Below, one piece after another: positions 9,423 to 17,841 of a DNA stretch of 64,000 bases (position 1 is the first letter of the stretch; every line of letters begins with the position of its first letter). The notes below the pieces were generated by a model that saw only the letters and a program-made list of their open reading frames with translations, was not told where the DNA came from and did no database searches. Position numbers and translations under genes: made by a program. Origin of the DNA: Escherichia phage vB_EcoM_WFH; sequence record NC_048194.1; one strand, written 5' to 3'.

Positions 9423-10883
9423 ATGAATAAAATATTAACACATAATTGGAAAGTCATGTACCAGTTGAATCCTGCTTTAAGAGAAGTCTGGAAGACGAAA
9501 GCGCGATACAAAGTCATATACGGCGGTCGTGCATCTTCCAAATCGCACGATGCCGCTGGTTTTGCTATTTATTTGGCGGCAAACTTCAAATTAAAATTCC
9601 TTTGCGTTCGACAATTCCAGAACAAGATTTCTGAATCAGTATATACGCTATTAAAAGATAAAATAGAGATTTCTGATTTTAAAGACGAGTTCAACTTATT
9701 AAAAAACTCTATTGAACACAAAAGAACAAAATCTGAATTTTTATTTTACGGTATCGCACGCAACGTTGACGAAATCAAATCAACAGAAGGTGTTGATGTT
9801 CTTTGGCTTGAAGAAGCGCATGCACTGACTGAAGAGCAATGGGACATTATTGAGCCGACAATTCGTAAGGAAGGGTCCGAAATATGGATCATATTTAACC
9901 CTGATGAAGAGGCTGATTTCGTCTACCAGAACTTTGTTATGCGACCGCCGAAAAATGCCATCGTTAAGAAGATTAACTGGCAGGACAATCCATTCTTGTC
10001 GCAAACAATGCTGGATGTTATCGCTGGCATGTATGAGCGCGACCCGAAAAAGGCAGAACACGTTTATGGCGGAGTGCCGAAGACAGGTGGCGATAAGTCG
10101 GTCATCAACCGTGCATTCGTCAAAGCCGCGCTAAACCTCCACAAACACCCTACGCTGGGATGGAGCTTGTCAGGGTCTAACCGTATAGGCTTCGACGTGG
10201 CGGACGACGGCGACGACTTAAACGCCACAGCGTTTGTCACAGGCAACGTATTACGTGGCATCAAGACATGGGAAGGTCTGGAAGATGAATTGCTTAAGTC
10301 CGCAAGCGGAGTCTGGAAAGACGCATTGACATTCGGCGCATCAATCACCTATGACGCCATCGGTGTTGGTGCATTTGCTGGTTCAAAATTTGATGAGCTT
10401 AATGAGTATGCAATCCATGAAAATCCAACATTCCCAAGAATCGAATTTAATGCGTTCAACGCGCAAGGTGCTGTTGATGATCCTGATGACGTCTTCCTTG
10501 AGTTACCACACGTTGAAATACTCAATAAAGACCATTTCGCAAACATAAAAGCGCAAAAATGGACTGAGATTGCCGAACGATTCAGAAAGACATATGAGTA
10601 TGCGACAGGGCAAGCCGTATATCCGACCGATGAGTTGATTTCCATCGACACAGACGGCATCCCAGAACTTGGTATTCCCGCTTGGTCTGCGGAAGAAATT
10701 GAGACGTTTCTTTTTGAGATGTCAGCACCGCGCAAAGACACGTCTGTACTTGGCAAGTTCAAAGTTGAATCGAAAAAGGATATGGCAAAGCGTGGAGTCA
10801 AATCGCCTAACAAAGCGGACGCAGCAATCATGGCATTGATGAAACCAATTGTTGCAGCATCCGGCTTCTTCTCTAACCTTTAA
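9423..10883 (+). CDS. terL: Terminase large subunit
   Basis: Walker A GGRASSKSH near the N-terminus, Walker B-like VLWLEEAH, nuclease-type C-terminal half; 486 aa; portal follows. Confidence 0.9.
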   Translation: MNKILTHNWKVMYQLNPALREVWKTKARYKVIYGGRASSKSHDAAGFAIYLAANFKLKFLCVRQFQNKISESVYTLLKDKIEISDFKDEFNLLKNSIEHKRTKSEFLFYGIARNVDEIKSTEGVDVLWLEEAHALTEEQWDIIEPTIRKEGSEIWIIFNPDEEADFVYQNFVMRPPKNAIVKKINWQDNPFLSQTMLDVIAGMYERDPKKAEHVYGGVPKTGGDKSVINRAFVKAALNLHKHPTLGWSLSGSNRIGFDVADDGDDLNATAFVTGNVLRGIKTWEGLEDELLKSASGVWKDALTFGASITYDAIGVGAFAGSKFDELNEYAIHENPTFPRIEFNAFNAQGAVDDPDDVFLELPHVEILNKDHFANIKAQKWTEIAERFRKTYEYATGQAVYPTDELISIDTDGIPELGIPAWSAEEIETFLFEMSAPRKDTSVLGKFKVESKKDMAKRGVKSPNKADAAIMALMKPIVAASGFFSNL

Positions 10884-10886
10884 CAA

Positions 10887-11126
10887 TTAAAGCATTCCGT
10901 GCTGAAGGTCGAGCTTTCTTGCGGCAAACGACCTGGCACGGAATCGCTTACCCGCCCTTACTGCCTGTCGAATTTTCTTTTGCAAACACTTACGGTCAAA
11001 ATCGTTGCGGTCGACGGCTTCGAGTAAATCGCGACGCAGTGCACCCAGTGTCGACTTTTCGGAGACTTCAACGCCCAGCGCGGCTGCAACATCTTTCAAA
11101 ACATCGAGTTCGGTTAAAGTTCTCAT
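10887..11126 (-). CDS. Hypothetical protein
   Basis: 79-aa ORF with RBS AAGGGG. Confidence 0.45.
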   Translation of the reverse strand: MRTLTELDVLKDVAAALGVEVSEKSTLGALRRDLLEAVDRNDFDRKCLQKKIRQAVRAGKRFRARSFAARKLDLQHGML

Positions 11127-11539
11127 TTGATAATCCCCTTGATGTCTGATTCTGCCATAAAGATTGGAGTGCCGCCGCCAGGAACAATCGAGCGCGTGAC
11201 CTTGTCAAACATATCGTTTTCTTCAACTTGAATACGATAAAATTTATTTTTGGATGAAGATGGGCACAATCCCATAAATTTGCCGATGCCGCGAACGCAT
11301 TCATCTTCAAAGTATACTGTTTCACCTTGAATGGAGTCGATGTCGTCTACTGGATAGACCTTGCGACCCAATAGCCACTCATCCAAAGTCGCCTGCAAGA
11401 CGTTGCGCGCATCTAAAATCCACGGGTCAATAGTAGCACCTTCATATCGCGCAGCAGTGGCCTTTGCCAGTTCTTCATATTCGCATACGTTAACGACTTC
11501 GCCGTTGTGCAAGACGACAAATACAATTGTTGTGCTCAT
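11123..11539 (-). CDS. Hypothetical protein
   Basis: 138-aa ORF, stop/start overlap with the downstream gene. Confidence 0.5.
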   Translation of the reverse strand: MSTTIVFVVLHNGEVVNVCEYEELAKATAARYEGATIDPWILDARNVLQATLDEWLLGRKVYPVDDIDSIQGETVYFEDECVRGIGKFMGLCPSSSKNKFYRIQVEENDMFDKVTRSIVPGGGTPIFMAESDIKGIIK

Positions 11540-11663: not shown

Positions 11664-11701
11664 ATAGATTGATTCCCTTTCACTGTCAGGTGGCGTTAAC
11701 A

Positions 11702-14077
11702 ATGAAAATTCTTGGCATAAAACTCTGGGAGAAGACGCAACCAGAAGCCGAACCAGCGGAGATGCCGCCAGGCGACCCATTGGCACCGTTTGAACGCCTT
11801 GAAAGGCGCGGCAGCGGTCAACGCTGGGAAAAGACTGAAAGCAATCGACCGACCTTTAAAACGGTTGATGACTTCCCTTTATATGAGCCTGATATTAATG
11901 GCGATGGTGTTGCAATCATAAAAGGTCGTTCAGTCGATTCCGCAACAGTATCCAAAAAGGTTATGGATAATGCCTTAAAGAACATCAGTTCAGAAGGGCA
12001 AGTCAACCCATACACAGTACCTATTCAACTTCAAAACTGGTATTTGTCACAGTCATTCATCGGCTATCAAGCTTGTGCCATCATCGCACAGCATTGGCTG
12101 GTGAACAAGGCATGTTCCATGGTAGGCCGCGATGCGGTCCGTAAAGGTTGGGAAGTCAAATCCAGTTCTGAGTCAGAATTGTCAGTACAGGCAAGCGAAC
12201 GCCTAAAGCAAATTGATAAAGAATTTAATATCAAAGAGCACTTAGTTGAAGCCGAACGATTCAAAAATATTTTTGGTATCCGCGTCATCATATTTGATGT
12301 GCGTAGCGATGACCCAGAATATTACAGCAAGCCTTTTAACATTGATGGCGTGACAAAGGGGTCTTATAAGGGAATCATTCAGGTTGACCCTTATTGGATG
12401 ATGCCGTTTCTGACGTCTGAAAACACCGCCGACCCTGCATCACAGCACTTCTATGATCCAGAATACTGGGTGATCAGCGGACAACGTTATCATCGCAGCC
12501 ACCTAATCATCTTGCGCAATGATGAGCCAGCTGATATTCTCAAGCCAACTTATATTTACGGCGGCATTCCTCTGACTCAGCAGATTTATGAACGCATCTA
12601 TGCCGCTGAACGTACCGCTAACGAAGCGCCATTGCTGGCAATGTCCAAGCGTACAACCACGCTGCGGACAGACGTTGACAAGGCGATTGCCAATGAGCGG
12701 TCTTTTGCAGAACGTCTGATGATGTGGATCAAGTACCGCGACAACTATGCAGTCAAAGTGCTTGGCCAAAAAGAAGAGATGGACCAGTTTGACATTAACT
12801 TGTCAGACTTCGACAGCATCATCATGAACCAGTACCAGCTTGTGGCCGCAATCGCAAAAGTTCCGTCGACCAAACTGCTTGGGACTTCGCCAAAAGGCTT
12901 TAACGCCACTGGTGAATTCGAGATGGTCAGCTATCACGAAGAGTTGGAAACGTGCCAGCAGCATGACCTGACAAAAATTCTCGACCGCCATTACAAAATC
13001 CTTCTCAAATCAGAAGGGGTGGATGTCGATGTTAAGGTTGCATGGGAACCAGTTGGCTCACTTACTGCTACTCAACTTGCAGAAATCAATGATAAGCGAG
13101 CCAACACTGGCAAAACTCTTATTGATGCTGGCGTCATTTCTCCTGATGAAGAGCGCGACCGCATCAAAGACGACAAAAACAGCGGCTACAACCGTCTGCC
13201 GGAAGACGCAGCAGAAGAAACCCCAGGGATGTCTCCAGAGAATATGGCATTGCTTGGCAAGTCTGCTGGTGAAGTCCTGCAAGGTAAGGCCGATATTGAA
13301 CAGGCGAAAGCTGATGTCGTTAAGATGGGCGGCCAGTTCTATAGCGAAACAGGTATTATGCCAGAGGGTGCCGCGCGTGGTGAGTTGGCGGAAAACCCTG
13401 ACAAAGCGCCTGTCGAAATCAACATGGACGATACCGATGATGAATCAAGCCATCAGGTTGATGTCCTAACGCAGTTGAAAGAAGGGCTGGAGGGTATTGC
13501 GGATTACTACCTGAAAGAAGGTCAGGATGTGGATTTTGACCCTCAAAAAGATTCACGGTCGGTGCAACCGTCTACCCTTCCAAGCGTTAAAGGACACGTC
13601 GTCAACTTACGCCACAACGTGGGTAAAATGGACGCAGCATCATTACCTAAGATGAAGTTGCACGGAATGATTCTTGGCATTGAGAATCCGCGAAACAGCA
13701 TTCGTAGAGGAAACAGCCTTGACGGTGAATGGGCCGTGAAGATGCCGCACCACTACGGATTCATCAAGGGCACCAAGGGCGCAGACGGTGATGAAGTCGA
13801 CTGCTTTGTGGGTCCAAATCTGAAGTCGCCGAAAGTCTTTATCGTGAACCAAAACGATAACTACTCTGGCGAGTTTGATGAACACAAGTGTATGCTTGGA
13901 TTCGATTCAGCAGAAGAAGCGAAAGAAGCTTATCAAGCATCATTTGGTAACGGTTGGAACGGATTCGACTCAATCCACGAATTAGATGTGAACTCATTCA
14001 AGGAGTGGTTGAAGGGTGATTGCTCTCAAGCATACGGAGCACTCAATAATCCTACTAATTCACCGAAGCAAGGTTGA
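11702..14077 (+). CDS. Portal protein with a C-terminal extension carrying an inorganic-pyrophosphatase-type signature
   Basis: Position between terL and MuF; ORF 11669-14077 trimmed to the ATG after AGGTGG; C-terminal about 150 aa contains YGFIKGTKGADGDEVDCFV (D-x-D-x-x-D pattern) and AEEAKEAYQASF. Confidence 0.7.
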   Translation: MKILGIKLWEKTQPEAEPAEMPPGDPLAPFERLERRGSGQRWEKTESNRPTFKTVDDFPLYEPDINGDGVAIIKGRSVDSATVSKKVMDNALKNISSEGQVNPYTVPIQLQNWYLSQSFIGYQACAIIAQHWLVNKACSMVGRDAVRKGWEVKSSSESELSVQASERLKQIDKEFNIKEHLVEAERFKNIFGIRVIIFDVRSDDPEYYSKPFNIDGVTKGSYKGIIQVDPYWMMPFLTSENTADPASQHFYDPEYWVISGQRYHRSHLIILRNDEPADILKPTYIYGGIPLTQQIYERIYAAERTANEAPLLAMSKRTTTLRTDVDKAIANERSFAERLMMWIKYRDNYAVKVLGQKEEMDQFDINLSDFDSIIMNQYQLVAAIAKVPSTKLLGTSPKGFNATGEFEMVSYHEELETCQQHDLTKILDRHYKILLKSEGVDVDVKVAWEPVGSLTATQLAEINDKRANTGKTLIDAGVISPDEERDRIKDDKNSGYNRLPEDAAEETPGMSPENMALLGKSAGEVLQGKADIEQAKADVVKMGGQFYSETGIMPEGAARGELAENPDKAPVEINMDDTDDESSHQVDVLTQLKEGLEGIADYYLKEGQDVDFDPQKDSRSVQPSTLPSVKGHVVNLRHNVGKMDAASLPKMKLHGMILGIENPRNSIRRGNSLDGEWAVKMPHHYGFIKGTKGADGDEVDCFVGPNLKSPKVFIVNQNDNYSGEFDEHKCMLGFDSAEEAKEAYQASFGNGWNGFDSIHELDVNSFKEWLKGDCSQAYGALNNPTNSPKQG

Positions 14078-14078
14078 T

Positions 14079-14930
14079 ATGGCTTTTAAAGCTTCGAAAA
14101 AACGTGAACGCCGCTCACCCGATAGAATCGGGCGCGGCAGTCCGATAATCCCATCAAACGCTATTGCGATGGCCTACCGTCGTGAGATGAAAGGTCTTTG
14201 CTATGCGATGATTGATGACTATCAGGCAGGAATTTCAGAGTGGCTTGAAAAGAAGCAGGTGCAGAAGTTCTTTGCGCAAGACTCTGCTGATTCAACATTC
14301 CAAACTCTTATGAAACGTCTGCAGCTGAAATGGGCAAAGGCGTTTGCTCGTGTTGGGTCGAAGATTGCCGCTGATTTTATCAAGTCGGTTGAAAAGGGTG
14401 CTACTTCTGCTACATTCGCCAGCCTTAAGTCCGCAGGCATAGAAGCGCCAAAGGCCACATATAACAAATTCGTTGAGAACACTCTTAGAACAAGCGAGAC
14501 GTTTAACACGACTCTAGTGACTAAGGTCGGCGAGGATATTCACAACAGAGTGTACGAAGCAGTCATGCTTTCGCTGACTTCGCCCGACCCAGCCCAGCAA
14601 GGCACGTCAGGCATTCAGGCGGCGCTGCGAAACGTAAAACACTTCTCTGCAAAGAGAGTCGACTTAATCGCTAAAGACCAGACAAGCAAATTGTATTGCG
14701 TTCTAAGCGATGAAAGGATGCGCCAGAATGGAGTTGAAGAATTTGAATGGGCGCACTCAGGAGCAGGAAAGGAGCCGCGAATCTCTCATGAACATGTCGA
14801 CGGAATGAGATTCAAACTTGATGACAAGCGTCTATGGGAAGTGGGCGGAGAGTTGAAGTTCAAAAAGGGTGACATCGGTCCTCCTGGATGGGCGATACAC
14901 TGCAAGTGCAGAAAAATACCAATCATTTGA
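14079..14930 (+). CDS. Head morphogenesis protein (Mu F / SPP1 gp7-like)
   Basis: Follows portal; C-terminal HEHVDGMRF ... PPGWAIHCKCR typical of this family. Confidence 0.75.
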   Translation: MAFKASKKRERRSPDRIGRGSPIIPSNAIAMAYRREMKGLCYAMIDDYQAGISEWLEKKQVQKFFAQDSADSTFQTLMKRLQLKWAKAFARVGSKIAADFIKSVEKGATSATFASLKSAGIEAPKATYNKFVENTLRTSETFNTTLVTKVGEDIHNRVYEAVMLSLTSPDPAQQGTSGIQAALRNVKHFSAKRVDLIAKDQTSKLYCVLSDERMRQNGVEEFEWAHSGAGKEPRISHEHVDGMRFKLDDKRLWEVGGELKFKKGDIGPPGWAIHCKCRKIPII

Positions 14931-16399: not shown

Positions 16400-16428
16400 A
16401 CACAATACTTATTTGAGGGTGGATGCGA

Positions 16429-17841
16429 ATGCAAACGGCACGCGAAATTGACAAAAATGGATTCTTGACGATTGTGGGTTGTCCCATTTCGTCATTTGGC
16501 ATTTTTGATTATTCTGCAGGTCAGGTTGGACTTGATGGTGATCCGAATCGCATCGTAAAAGTTTATCGCCCAGAGTCAGCGGTGAAAGACCCCGAAGCGA
16601 TAGATTCATTCAAAAATATCCCTTTCATCGACAATCACGAAATGCTTTCTGGATTCGAAGGTGATGAGGATAACACAGCACCCGAAGAGTATGGCGTTGA
16701 TGGCGTTCTAACTGGCAATGTTTATTATGACAAGCCATGGATGCGCGGCGACCTTAAAGTTTTTAGCCGTCGTCTGAAGAAGGCCATCGATTCTGGAAAG
16801 GTTGACTTGTCTTTGGGCTATGACTGTGAATTCATCATACAGTCTGGAGAGTTTGACGGGCAGCCGTATGAAGTGGTACAGACAACTCTTCGCGGCAACC
16901 ACATTGCTCTCGTGGACGTTGGTCGAGTACCAGGTGCACGGGTGCTGGATGGTCGTTGCTTTGACCATCTTTGTTTGACGACTGTAACACCATCCAACGA
17001 GGATTTAGACATGCCAAAACCGTTAAAAGGTAAAGCGCGTGATAATGCTGTTGAACAGCTGAAATCACTGATCCCTGCGCTCGAACAATTTCTGAATGAA
17101 GAGAGCACCGAAGCTGCTCATCAGGACGAAGTTGAAGTGAAAGCAGAAGAGAAGGATTCAACCGAAGAACGTGAAGAAGTGATGGTTGATCCAGAAGTCA
17201 AAGCAGAAGCTGAAGAGACTCCAGAAGGTGAAGAGAAGTTTGAAGTTGAAACTGAATCTCACGCTGGCGGCGAGCTTCCGCAACTGATCAGCCAAATCGA
17301 AGCACTTATTGCAAAACTGAAAGGTGGCGCGGTAGGTGATGAAGAAGAAGTTGAAGCCGAAGTCAAAGACGAAGAAGTTGAAGTCAAGGCTGAAGATGTA
17401 TCACCTTGCGACAAAGCTGAAGATGTGGTTAGCGGCCTGCAAAACAGCAACGTAAAGGGGGCTTCGGTCGAAAAAGATGACAAACCGACAAAAGCGGCGA
17501 AAGCGTCGCCAGGTCCAGCAAAAGGGGAACACTCAATGGCATCTGATTCAGCAGTTGCTGCTTTCTACGCTGATTCTGCTCGTAAGAATAGCCTCTACCA
17601 GCGCCTGTCTAAAGTTGTTGGTGCCTTTGATCATGCAACTATGGACTCCAAGTCCGTAGCGAAATATGGCGCTAAAAAGTTAGGCTTGAAGTGCGTTGAT
17701 GGTGCTGAGTTTGACGTGGTGGATAATTATCTGCGCGGCGTTGAACACGGTCAAAAACAGCGTGTAGTCGCAAAACAAAAGGCCGCTGCGGATTCTGCAG
17801 CAACTGACGAAGCATTTGAAGCTTGGTTGAAAGGGGAATAA
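16429..17841 (+). CDS. Prohead protease / scaffolding-like protein
   Basis: Conserved-looking N-terminal domain (RGNHIALVDVGR), then a long acidic Glu/Lys/Ala-rich coiled coil typical of scaffolds; directly upstream of the capsid genes. Confidence 0.55.
   Translation: MQTAREIDKNGFLTIVGCPISSFGIFDYSAGQVGLDGDPNRIVKVYRPESAVKDPEAIDSFKNIPFIDNHEMLSGFEGDEDNTAPEEYGVDGVLTGNVYYDKPWMRGDLKVFSRRLKKAIDSGKVDLSLGYDCEFIIQSGEFDGQPYEVVQTTLRGNHIALVDVGRVPGARVLDGRCFDHLCLTTVTPSNEDLDMPKPLKGKARDNAVEQLKSLIPALEQFLNEESTEAAHQDEVEVKAEEKDSTEEREEVMVDPEVKAEAEETPEGEEKFEVETESHAGGELPQLISQIEALIAKLKGGAVGDEEEVEAEVKDEEVEVKAEDVSPCDKAEDVVSGLQNSNVKGASVEKDDKPTKAAKASPGPAKGEHSMASDSAVAAFYADSARKNSLYQRLSKVVGAFDHATMDSKSVAKYGAKKLGLKCVDGAEFDVVDNYLRGVEHGQKQRVVAKQKAAADSAATDEAFEAWLKGE

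Follow-up and report, generated by a model that had tools for sequence, protein, structure and literature searches.

The portal gene of Escherichia phage vB_EcoM_WFH (sequence record NC_048194.1; the 64,000-nucleotide stretch that was analyzed is called the window below) encodes a protein in which a portal body is followed by an acidic linker and by an InPase domain, PF18823, a hairpin-less relative of the family I inorganic pyrophosphatases (PPases). The domain is predicted to adopt the PPase fold, carries the acidic residues of the metal site, is under strong purifying selection, and is present in the virions of phages of the same genus, Wifcevirus. We favor, with moderate confidence, the view that it is a pre-made capsid enzyme acting at the onset of the next infection, after its release from the portal. 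The parts of the gene are as follows, with residues numbered from the Met at 11702 (pLDDT, predicted local distance difference test).

11702..14077, + strand: portal-InPase gene, 791 codons plus a TGA stop at 14075-14077
12014..13321, + strand: portal body and C-terminal barrel equivalent, residues 105-540, mapped by alignment to E217/Pa193
12065..13105, + strand: portal domain, PF06381 Phage_portal_3 / DUF1073, residues 122-468 (296 bits, E = 3.3e-88)
13322..13645, + strand: linker, residues 541-648 (~108), acidic and length-variable
13646..14014, + strand: InPase domain, PF18823, residues 649-771
13784..13804, + strand: DGDEVDC (D695, D697, D700), equivalent to the metal-binding and general-base motif D65-G-D67-P-V-D70-V of Escherichia coli PPase
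14015..14074, + strand: C-terminal tail, residues 772-791 (pLDDT ~50-58), overlapping the translation start region of the next gene

A pyrophosphatase-like domain is fused to the portal

The initial annotation of the window had described a 792-codon portal gene, longer than is typical, with a pyrophosphatase pattern in its C-terminal extension, and all three points were borne out. The entry in the list of open reading frames (ORFs) runs from 11669 to 14077 on the + strand and opens at TTG; the ATG at 11702 is the start in every annotated relative (9) and gives 791 residues plus the stop. The assignment as a portal is based on the PF06381 match, on homology to the Pa193 gp19 portal (PDB 9B41), and on the terminase nearby, and PHROG 4660 matches the protein over its full length. 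The unusual length of the gene comes from some 250 residues beyond the part that cryo-electron microscopy (cryo-EM) shows to be ordered in the homologous E217 and Pa193 portals, in which residues 94/97-528 were modelled (PMC11042391, PMC10329688). An alignment of eight portal-InPase proteins, about 50% identical, resolves into the same three zones, namely portal body, linker, and InPase domain. The portal domain is 60-80% identical and the InPase domain 58-66% identical across the eight, while identity in the linker, in which Asp and Glu make up 19% of the residues, falls to 13-32% as against 58-66% in the flanking domains.

PF18823 matched the whole protein with 157.1 bits and the segment with 160.1 bits (cut-off 26.8; E = 3e-46). 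The classical Pyrophosphatase family, PF00719, scored 18.0-20.4 bits, below its cut-off of 23.5, and aligned 25 residues around the signature. This signature, D-[SGDN]-D-[PE]-[LIVMF]-D-[LIVMGAC], has one match in the six-frame translation of the 64-kb window, where 0.01 would be expected from shuffled sequence; the match, DGDEVDC, lies in YGFIKGTKGADGDEVDCFV, residues 685-703 (13754-13810). A PDB profile search likewise reached the PPases solely through a 25-residue core (best E = 0.0016), and the only relative of solved structure found by sequence was Pa193 gp19 (PDB 9B41), which the C-terminal 190 residues alone matched with E = 3e-51. The C-terminal segment alone also matched PHROGs of giant proteins, some of them labelled DarB-like antirestriction protein or virion structural protein.

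Structure prediction of the C-terminal domain, which had been proposed as a check, gave a PPase-like model. AlphaFold modelled residues 639-791 from a 20-sequence alignment with a mean pLDDT of 90.9 and a predicted template modelling score (pTM) of 0.84, and when this model was compared with the PDB by Foldseek, the 50 best matches were all family I pyrophosphatases (E from 1.6e-4, template modelling score, TM, 0.39-0.49). Among predicted viral structures the best match was the portal of Serratia phage MTx (TM 0.86), and several further matches were named "Inorganic pyrophosphatase domain-containing protein". By the alignment and the predicted model, the domain is without the extra beta-hairpin that every crystallized family I PPase has between its first strands (Iyer et al. 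2017): E661 and Y685 are 24 positions apart, compared with 35 for E20 and Y55 of the E. coli enzyme, and hhalign places 11 gap positions in this stretch, where the R43 region is gone. On the predicted model, the reading of the InPase domain as a PPase barrel fold, a distant and trimmed relative of the classical enzyme, holds. When AlphaFold was run on the whole protein with six aligned sequences, the model (mean pLDDT 36, pTM 0.23) was unusable for judging linker disorder or domain placement and was set aside.

The N-terminal edge of the domain varies within the family. Most InPase domains open with a K-E-A-G-N-Y-K-K-G-H strand, which is missing from the portal-fused subgroup (Wifcevirus, Pbunavirus, MyoSmar); these proteins have LPKMK(L/V) there (window residues 649-660, 13646-13680), and the Pfam PF18823 match on the portal-InPase protein begins at profile position 12.

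The presence of a PROSITE-type signature and of a C-terminal helix resembling that of E. coli Ppa could suggest that an ordinary family I pyrophosphatase was newly captured from a bacterial host. The sub-cut-off PF00719 score over 25 residues and the best PDB link to PPases at E = 0.0016 speak against such a capture, as do the 11-residue deletion between E20 and Y55, the shortening elsewhere, and the fact that all close relatives are phage proteins. We consider it very improbable.

Conservation of the active site

PPases have about 14 conserved polar residues in the active site, which in the E. coli enzyme are E20, K29, E31, R43, Y51, Y55, D65, D67, D70, D97, D102, K104, Y141, and K142. The E. 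coli Ppa sequence was confirmed against PDB 4UM4, and a 173-copy InPase profile was aligned with a Ppa profile by hhalign (93% probability, E = 2.8e-7); a search with E. coli Ppa for a diverse PPase profile returned only sequences at least 82% identical and was of little help. DGDEVDC was aligned to the PPases by both HMMER and hhalign. The correspondences, with their basis in brackets, are as follows.

E. coli Ppa E20: InPase E661 (hhalign)
E. coli Ppa K29: InPase R668 (hhalign)
E. coli Ppa E31: lost, Gly in InPase (hhalign)
E. coli Ppa R43: deleted within the 11-residue shortening (hhalign)
E. coli Ppa Y51: lost, Met in InPase (hhalign)
E. coli Ppa Y55: InPase Y685 (hhalign)
E. coli Ppa D65 / D67 / D70: InPase D695 / D697 / D700 (hhalign)
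E. coli Ppa D97: InPase position with Asp in only 52% of copies (alignment)
E. coli Ppa D102 / K104: InPase D726 or E727 / K729 (strand register)
E. coli Ppa Y141: InPase counterpart ambiguous, as the C-terminal half aligns two ways
E. coli Ppa K142: no InPase counterpart (alignment)

Eight of the roughly 14 classical residues are thus matched (E20, K29 as Arg, Y55, D65, D67, D70, D102, and K104). Across the 173 copies, E661, R668, G670, W677, Y685, G686, D695, D697, D700, G704, Q717, D726, E727, K729, G733, A740, and Y744 are 94-100% conserved, with D695 and D700 at 99-100% and D697 at 94%, and the window protein carries every one of the family-wide invariants. The conservation of metal-binding Asp/Glu and Lys residues, which the initial annotation had proposed to check, was therefore found: the metal-site acidic residues E661, D695, D697, D700, D726, and E727 are all present, as is K729.

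The same annotation had noted a likeness to the pyrophosphatase C-terminus, and this likeness is real but weak. When MLGFDSAEEAKEAYQASFGN was aligned alone, its best partner was the E. coli PPase segment VEGWENAEAAKAEIVASFER, with a pairwise E of 0.004-0.01; AEEAKEAYQASF is residues 737-748 (13910-13945). Two alignments of the C-terminal half compete, in that topology puts its first helix on PPase helix A and sequence puts it on the PPase C-terminal helix, where MLGFDSAEEAKEAYQASF pairs with the PPase C-terminal VEGWENAEAAKAEIVASF. A residue-level map of this half on E. coli PPase was rejected, since the global hhalign path is of low confidence and the local alignment conflicts with it.

In PPases, K29, Y55, and K104 grip the attacked phosphate, while R43, Y141, and K142 grip the leaving phosphate. 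If these roles are right, the chemistry end of the InPase site would be kept and its leaving-group end rebuilt, which would fit a nucleotide-like substrate, as suggested by Iyer et al., as well as inorganic pyrophosphate (PPi). Judged from the aligned residues, the domain would most likely hydrolyze a phosphoanhydride bond in a Mg2+-dependent reaction, with PPi as substrate or else a nucleotide-like molecule whose leaving group is bulkier; the kept metal-Asp cluster, general-base Asp, and Glu, Arg, Tyr, and Lys, together with the lost leaving-phosphate residues, point this way.

The losses might instead mean that the domain is a non-catalytic head module exapted from the pyrophosphatase fold, for example a plug above the portal barrel that binds phosphate/metal or a DNA end, a DNA organizer, or a headful signal. 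Around five classical active-site residues are absent, the structural similarity to PPases is modest, the module adjoins the barrel that senses DNA in E217, and one relative (P0029) has Gln for the general-base Asp (D697). Against this, the three-Asp motif, E661, D726/E727, and K729 are 94-100% invariant in portals, in stand-alone 150-residue proteins, and in polyvalent proteins of 6000 residues, and such invariance across unlike proteins argues for a shared chemistry over a portal-specific structural role. The existence of a split version with the InPase gene detached from the portal (P0003) argues in the same direction, and we regard a non-catalytic module as improbable.

The gene is intact and under purifying selection

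The gene is 99.3% identical to that of Escherichia phage ManiWeber_Bas99, and 27 Wifcevirus or Wifcevirus-like records match it at 91-99% identity, each as one ungapped 2379-nt piece. In 11 of 11 Wifcevirus genomes (91-99% nucleotide identity), the identical 791-codon frame is found with a terminal stop only, so that the hidden stop codon that would have made the extension a separate gene is excluded. An artefact, be it a motif that arose by chance or a sequencing error that runs two genes together, found no support: the frame is intact in 27/27 ungapped matches and 11/11 translated relatives, the Pfam E-value is 3e-46 and the motif is expected only 0.01 times by chance, and proteins about 50% identical carry this fusion in Pbunavirus, Myosmarvirus, and metagenomic phages. 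We consider this explanation refuted.

Pooled Nei-Gojobori ratios of nonsynonymous to synonymous substitution (dN/dS) were 0.007 for the portal core, 0.025 for the linker, and 0.018 for the InPase domain, in which dS was about 0.43 among the 11 genomes. The InPase domain is under strong purifying selection, and so, within the genus, is the linker, despite its poor conservation between genera.

In these genomes both ends of the gene are low in nucleotide variation, with one variable site in 90 nt at 11702-11791, and with 2 of 21 third-codon positions variable at 14015-14077 as against 40% gene-wide. Two GenBank records begin the following MuF-like gene at a GTG at 14016, a 62-nt overlap with the portal gene, and not at the ATG at 14079. 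The low variation at the ends fits a translation-initiation region or a true overlap.

The domain is present in virions and is probably tethered flexibly

The proposed check by virion mass spectrometry is answered by published data. Necel et al. 2020 (PMC7048862) analyzed CsCl-purified virions of vB_Eco4M-7, with a portal gene 91% identical to that of the window, and of ECML-117, for which the figure is 98%, and the supplements list six or seven peptides from the InPase domain and tail. Among the portal peptides are LHGMILGIENPR with 140 peptide-spectrum matches (PSMs), oxidized form included, and MPHHYGFIK with 263 PSMs, as well as GADGDEVDCFVGPNMK/LK, VFII/VNQNDNYSGEFDEHK, and CMLGFDSAEEAK; the C-terminal peptide GDCSQAYGALNNPTNSPK was found in virions, and so were linker and N-terminal portal peptides (PMC7048862 supplements). 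The InPase domain is present in virions of congeneric phages and is easily digested there, which is what one would expect of a module that is exposed and held by a flexible attachment. These data, with the predicted fold, support the earlier proposal of a pyrophosphatase-like domain fused to the portal and carried in the capsid.

In vB_Eco4M-7, 439 of 559 portal PSMs fall in residues 649-791 (13646-14074) and about six come from the 350-residue portal core, counts that are not quantitative. A protease-resistant portal ring, peptide-specific ionization, or an excess of the C-terminal part over the core are possible causes of this skew. The peptide TGIMPEGAAR was considered as a sign of a processing site and was discarded, as the preceding residue in vB_Eco4M-7 is Lys and the peptide is fully tryptic.

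The symmetrized cryo-EM maps of E217 and Pa193 have no discernible density for portal residues 529-765 (PMC11042391, PMC10329688), the equivalent of residues 541-791 of the window protein, which fits a flexible tether. Both structure papers are silent on a pyrophosphatase-like domain.

The InPase domain is widespread and recurs next to other enzyme domains

In an exhaustive HMMER search of 1.84 billion representatives of clusters at 50% identity, the InPase domain was found in 11,272 of the representatives (9,366 at E <= 1e-10), in proteins of 165 to 6,421 residues, many of them giant polyvalent virion proteins; three of the representative-library matches (P0023, P0056, and P0089) have two InPase domains in tandem. 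By tblastn the domain was found in 469 phage records, 294 from Pseudomonas, 70 from Vibrio, and 25 from Escherichia phages, the remainder being from Serratia, Xanthomonas, Burkholderia, and other phages. In Achromobacter phage CF418P1 it resides in a 2,684-residue protein together with LPD3 and LPD38.

The close relatives P0024, P0026, and P0031 are portal-InPase fusions like that of the window, and in two metagenomic phages a further domain is added: P0025 (1191 aa; L017 6001-9576) consists of portal, InPase, and an ADP-ribosyltransferase toxin domain, and P0029 (1106 aa; L018 6001-9321) of portal, InPase, and topoisomerase IB. Both loci are syntenic with the window, with terminase, leftward small genes, portal, and MuF, and after P0029 a separate 552-aa ADP-ribosyltransferase gene (L018 9318-10976) lies between portal and MuF. 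It looks as if the portal-MuF junction were a hot spot for cargo enzymes.

P0025 and P0029 share the segment FKE(G/S)(D/E)HPRAxNGxFGxG between InPase and the added domain (alignment columns ~860-885), which might be a linker or a processing signal. P0029 has Gln at the presumed general-base position (GADGQDVDC; D697, window 13790-13792), and its InPase domain may be inactive.

The domain also occurs apart from a portal. A P1-like Vibrio element encodes a stand-alone 241-residue InPase protein (P0009; L002 8001-8726); the operon also contains LydB and two DarA_N proteins and is the module of capsid-packaged anti-restriction proteins. In the split form mentioned above (P0003; L020 2193-2828), a linker-like segment and InPase form a separate 211-residue gene with an in-frame stop 135 nt upstream, preceded by a DUF2213/PF09979 protein and a 99-aa ORF and directly followed by a MuF-like gene; it is known from a single 3-kb metagenomic contig, where an assembly artefact is possible. 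P0001 was rejected as a stand-alone InPase, since its ORF is open to the contig start and the gene call is truncated.

A proposed role at the onset of infection

The portal ring consists of twelve subunits. The portal has a conventional body, whose C-terminal helical barrel points into the head, and then the acidic linker and the 123-residue InPase domain; each capsid would hold twelve tethered InPase copies inside the head above the portal barrel. Proteolysis would free the domain from the portal, the head protease being the obvious candidate for the cut, and InPase would leave with the DNA. Once in the cell it would clear PPi for early transcription and replication, or destroy a host nucleotide induced by the infection. 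Such an effector role is backed by the relatives with an added ADP-ribosyltransferase (P0025) or topoisomerase IB (P0029), and by the occurrence of the domain in giant polyvalent virion proteins and as a stand-alone copy in the P1-like darA operon; it was also proposed by Iyer et al. 2017 (PMC5512222).

Several observations weigh against a role at the start of infection. E31, R43, Y51, and K142 are without counterpart, D97 is not conserved, and Y141 is ambiguous; with these classical residues lost, the substrate may be something other than PPi, and the domain could be only weakly active. The TM of 0.39-0.49 to PPases is only moderate, and in the literature searched, there is no enzymatic, biochemical, or genetic test of any PF18823 member. 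The 108-residue linker spans about 400 Å, and the tails of related phages are about 1300-1500 Å long; with a tether shorter than the tail, the host would be reached only if the domain is cleaved, and the release step is the weak link. None of the portal peptides of vB_Eco4M-7 and ECML-117 is semi-tryptic and no cleavage site was found among them, and since N-terminal, linker, and C-terminal peptides are all in virions, there is no sign of processing, although fully tryptic peptides do not tell whether the domain is joined or separate.

The same observations bring up the possibility that InPase works in the producing cell, where portal protein synthesized late, either free or in procapsids, would hydrolyze PPi or a nucleotide by-product at the height of replication and assembly; the domain would then end up in the virion merely through its fusion to a structural protein. 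It is covalently linked to a protein that does not leave the capsid, the search for a processing site, a peptidase domain, or a semi-tryptic peptide found none, and the linker is too short to pass through the tail; moreover, the exceptionally short cycle reported for Wifcevirus (BASEL preprint) would stress nucleotide metabolism. However, the PPase of E. coli itself is abundant and efficient, fusion to a 12-copy structural protein would be odd for a bulk activity, in relatives this very site bears an appended ADP-ribosyltransferase toxin or topoisomerase IB, and elsewhere the domain is characteristic of polyvalent and Dar-type proteins that are packaged in virions. A role confined to the producing cell thus seems unlikely to us, if less so than the other alternatives.

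A further possibility is that the twelve InPase copies are no pyrophosphatases but anti-defence phosphoanhydride hydrolases in which the leaving-group pocket is remodelled, cut from the portal in the head and injected to destroy a host alarm, immune, or defence-activating nucleotide before phage genes are expressed. The portal would then serve as a packaging handle, and injection would occur ahead of or with the DNA. The tail-tube lumen of Pa193 is about 37 Å wide, and the folded 14-kDa domain, estimated at about 32 Å, could just fit. We judge this possibility unlikely.

Genomic context

Wifceviruses are myophages of E. coli and Shigella with genomes of about 68 kb and are distant kin of the Pseudomonas phages of the genus Pbunavirus (BASEL preprint). 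The same preprint reports that they plate on E. coli K-12 only once its cryptic prophages are removed, and refers to a claimed infection cycle of 3-5 minutes; no gene has been linked to the plating requirement or to the short cycle. The portal gene is flanked in the window by the following genes.

9423-10883, + strand: large terminase (Terminase_3, PF04466), upstream of the portal gene
10887-11539, minus strand: two small ORFs, 79 and 138 aa, between terminase and portal, with no Pfam match
14079..14930, + strand: MuF-like head morphogenesis gene (PF04233, 31.1 bits against a cut-off of 29.6)
16423-17841: DUF2213 protein annotated as maturation protease, 472 aa, between the head-fibre-motif protein and the major capsid protein

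The MuF-like gene starts 1 nt past the portal stop, and the order portal then MuF is common to Pbunavirus PaGU11, MyoSmar, L017, and L018, which also have leftward small genes between terminase and portal. On the 3' side of the MuF-like gene come the head-fibre-motif protein, the DUF2213 protein, and the major capsid protein. In the DUF2213 protein the domain is confined to residues 7-174, and the rest is long, rich in Glu, Ala, and Lys, and resembles a fused scaffold. PF09979 is now also labelled 'Pa193_gp24' in Pfam, which is the protein under the capsid vertices of Pa193. PADLOC gave no match, and NCBIfam returned the HI1409 portal family only, with a sub-cut-off score.

Comparison with known systems

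The portal-InPase architecture is not new: it has been described before, and the phage genus is a known one. The InPase clade was defined by Iyer et al. 2017 (J Bacteriol, PMC5512222), who pointed out that it lacks the hairpin and is found in polyvalent proteins of phages, named portal fusions including BcepF1.124, and cited portal plus InPase as the simplest polyvalent case. They proposed that the domain clears inhibitory PPi or attacks nucleotides of the infection response. In the literature searched, the name InPase appears only in that paper, and the GenBank record of Serratia phage MyoSmar flags the homologue as "IPR008162 Inorganic pyrophosphatase family". The question of substrate and delivery concerns the whole InPase family and not the window alone. 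This family is very large and is represented in the Pbunavirus phages that serve in Pseudomonas phage therapy, yet the InPase-bearing third of the portal is neither modelled nor mentioned in two high-resolution virion structures. If it were known what the domain hydrolyzes and whether it exits the capsid, one would see how phages equip themselves in advance with enzymes for the opening seconds of an infection.

Like T4 Alt, the P1 Dar proteins, and the MuF-fused toxins (PMC5512222), the window protein holds a predicted enzyme domain inside the head and is encoded in the head-morphogenesis module. In contrast to those systems, the carrier here is the portal, which is not ejected, and neither a targeting sequence nor a peptidase domain is apparent. 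Iyer et al. 2017 take as polyvalent a phage or plasmid polypeptide that has at least two functionally distinct domains and probably enters with the DNA; of these features, the two-domain architecture is present in the window protein, and Pfam found no MPTase processing domain in it.

InPase shares with E. coli Ppa (PF00719, PS00387) the DxDxxD signature, the preceding YG, and the predicted barrel fold. It is about 50 residues shorter, has W677, Q717, and E727 as new invariants, and is a domain of a structural protein, whereas Ppa is a free hexameric enzyme.

The closest counterparts are the Pbunavirus gp19 proteins (E217, Pa193; PDB 9B41), which have the same three parts, 52% identity overall, and MuF next; gp19 has 765 residues compared with 791 here, and its linker sequence is unrelated. 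With the PF18823 family at large the window domain has in common the short E20-to-Y55 segment, the conserved acidic residues, the late-gene context, and the portal fusion. There is no essential difference from this family, within which the portal-fused subgroup is without the first ~11 profile positions, and the window thus provides another, nearly identical, member of the described architecture.

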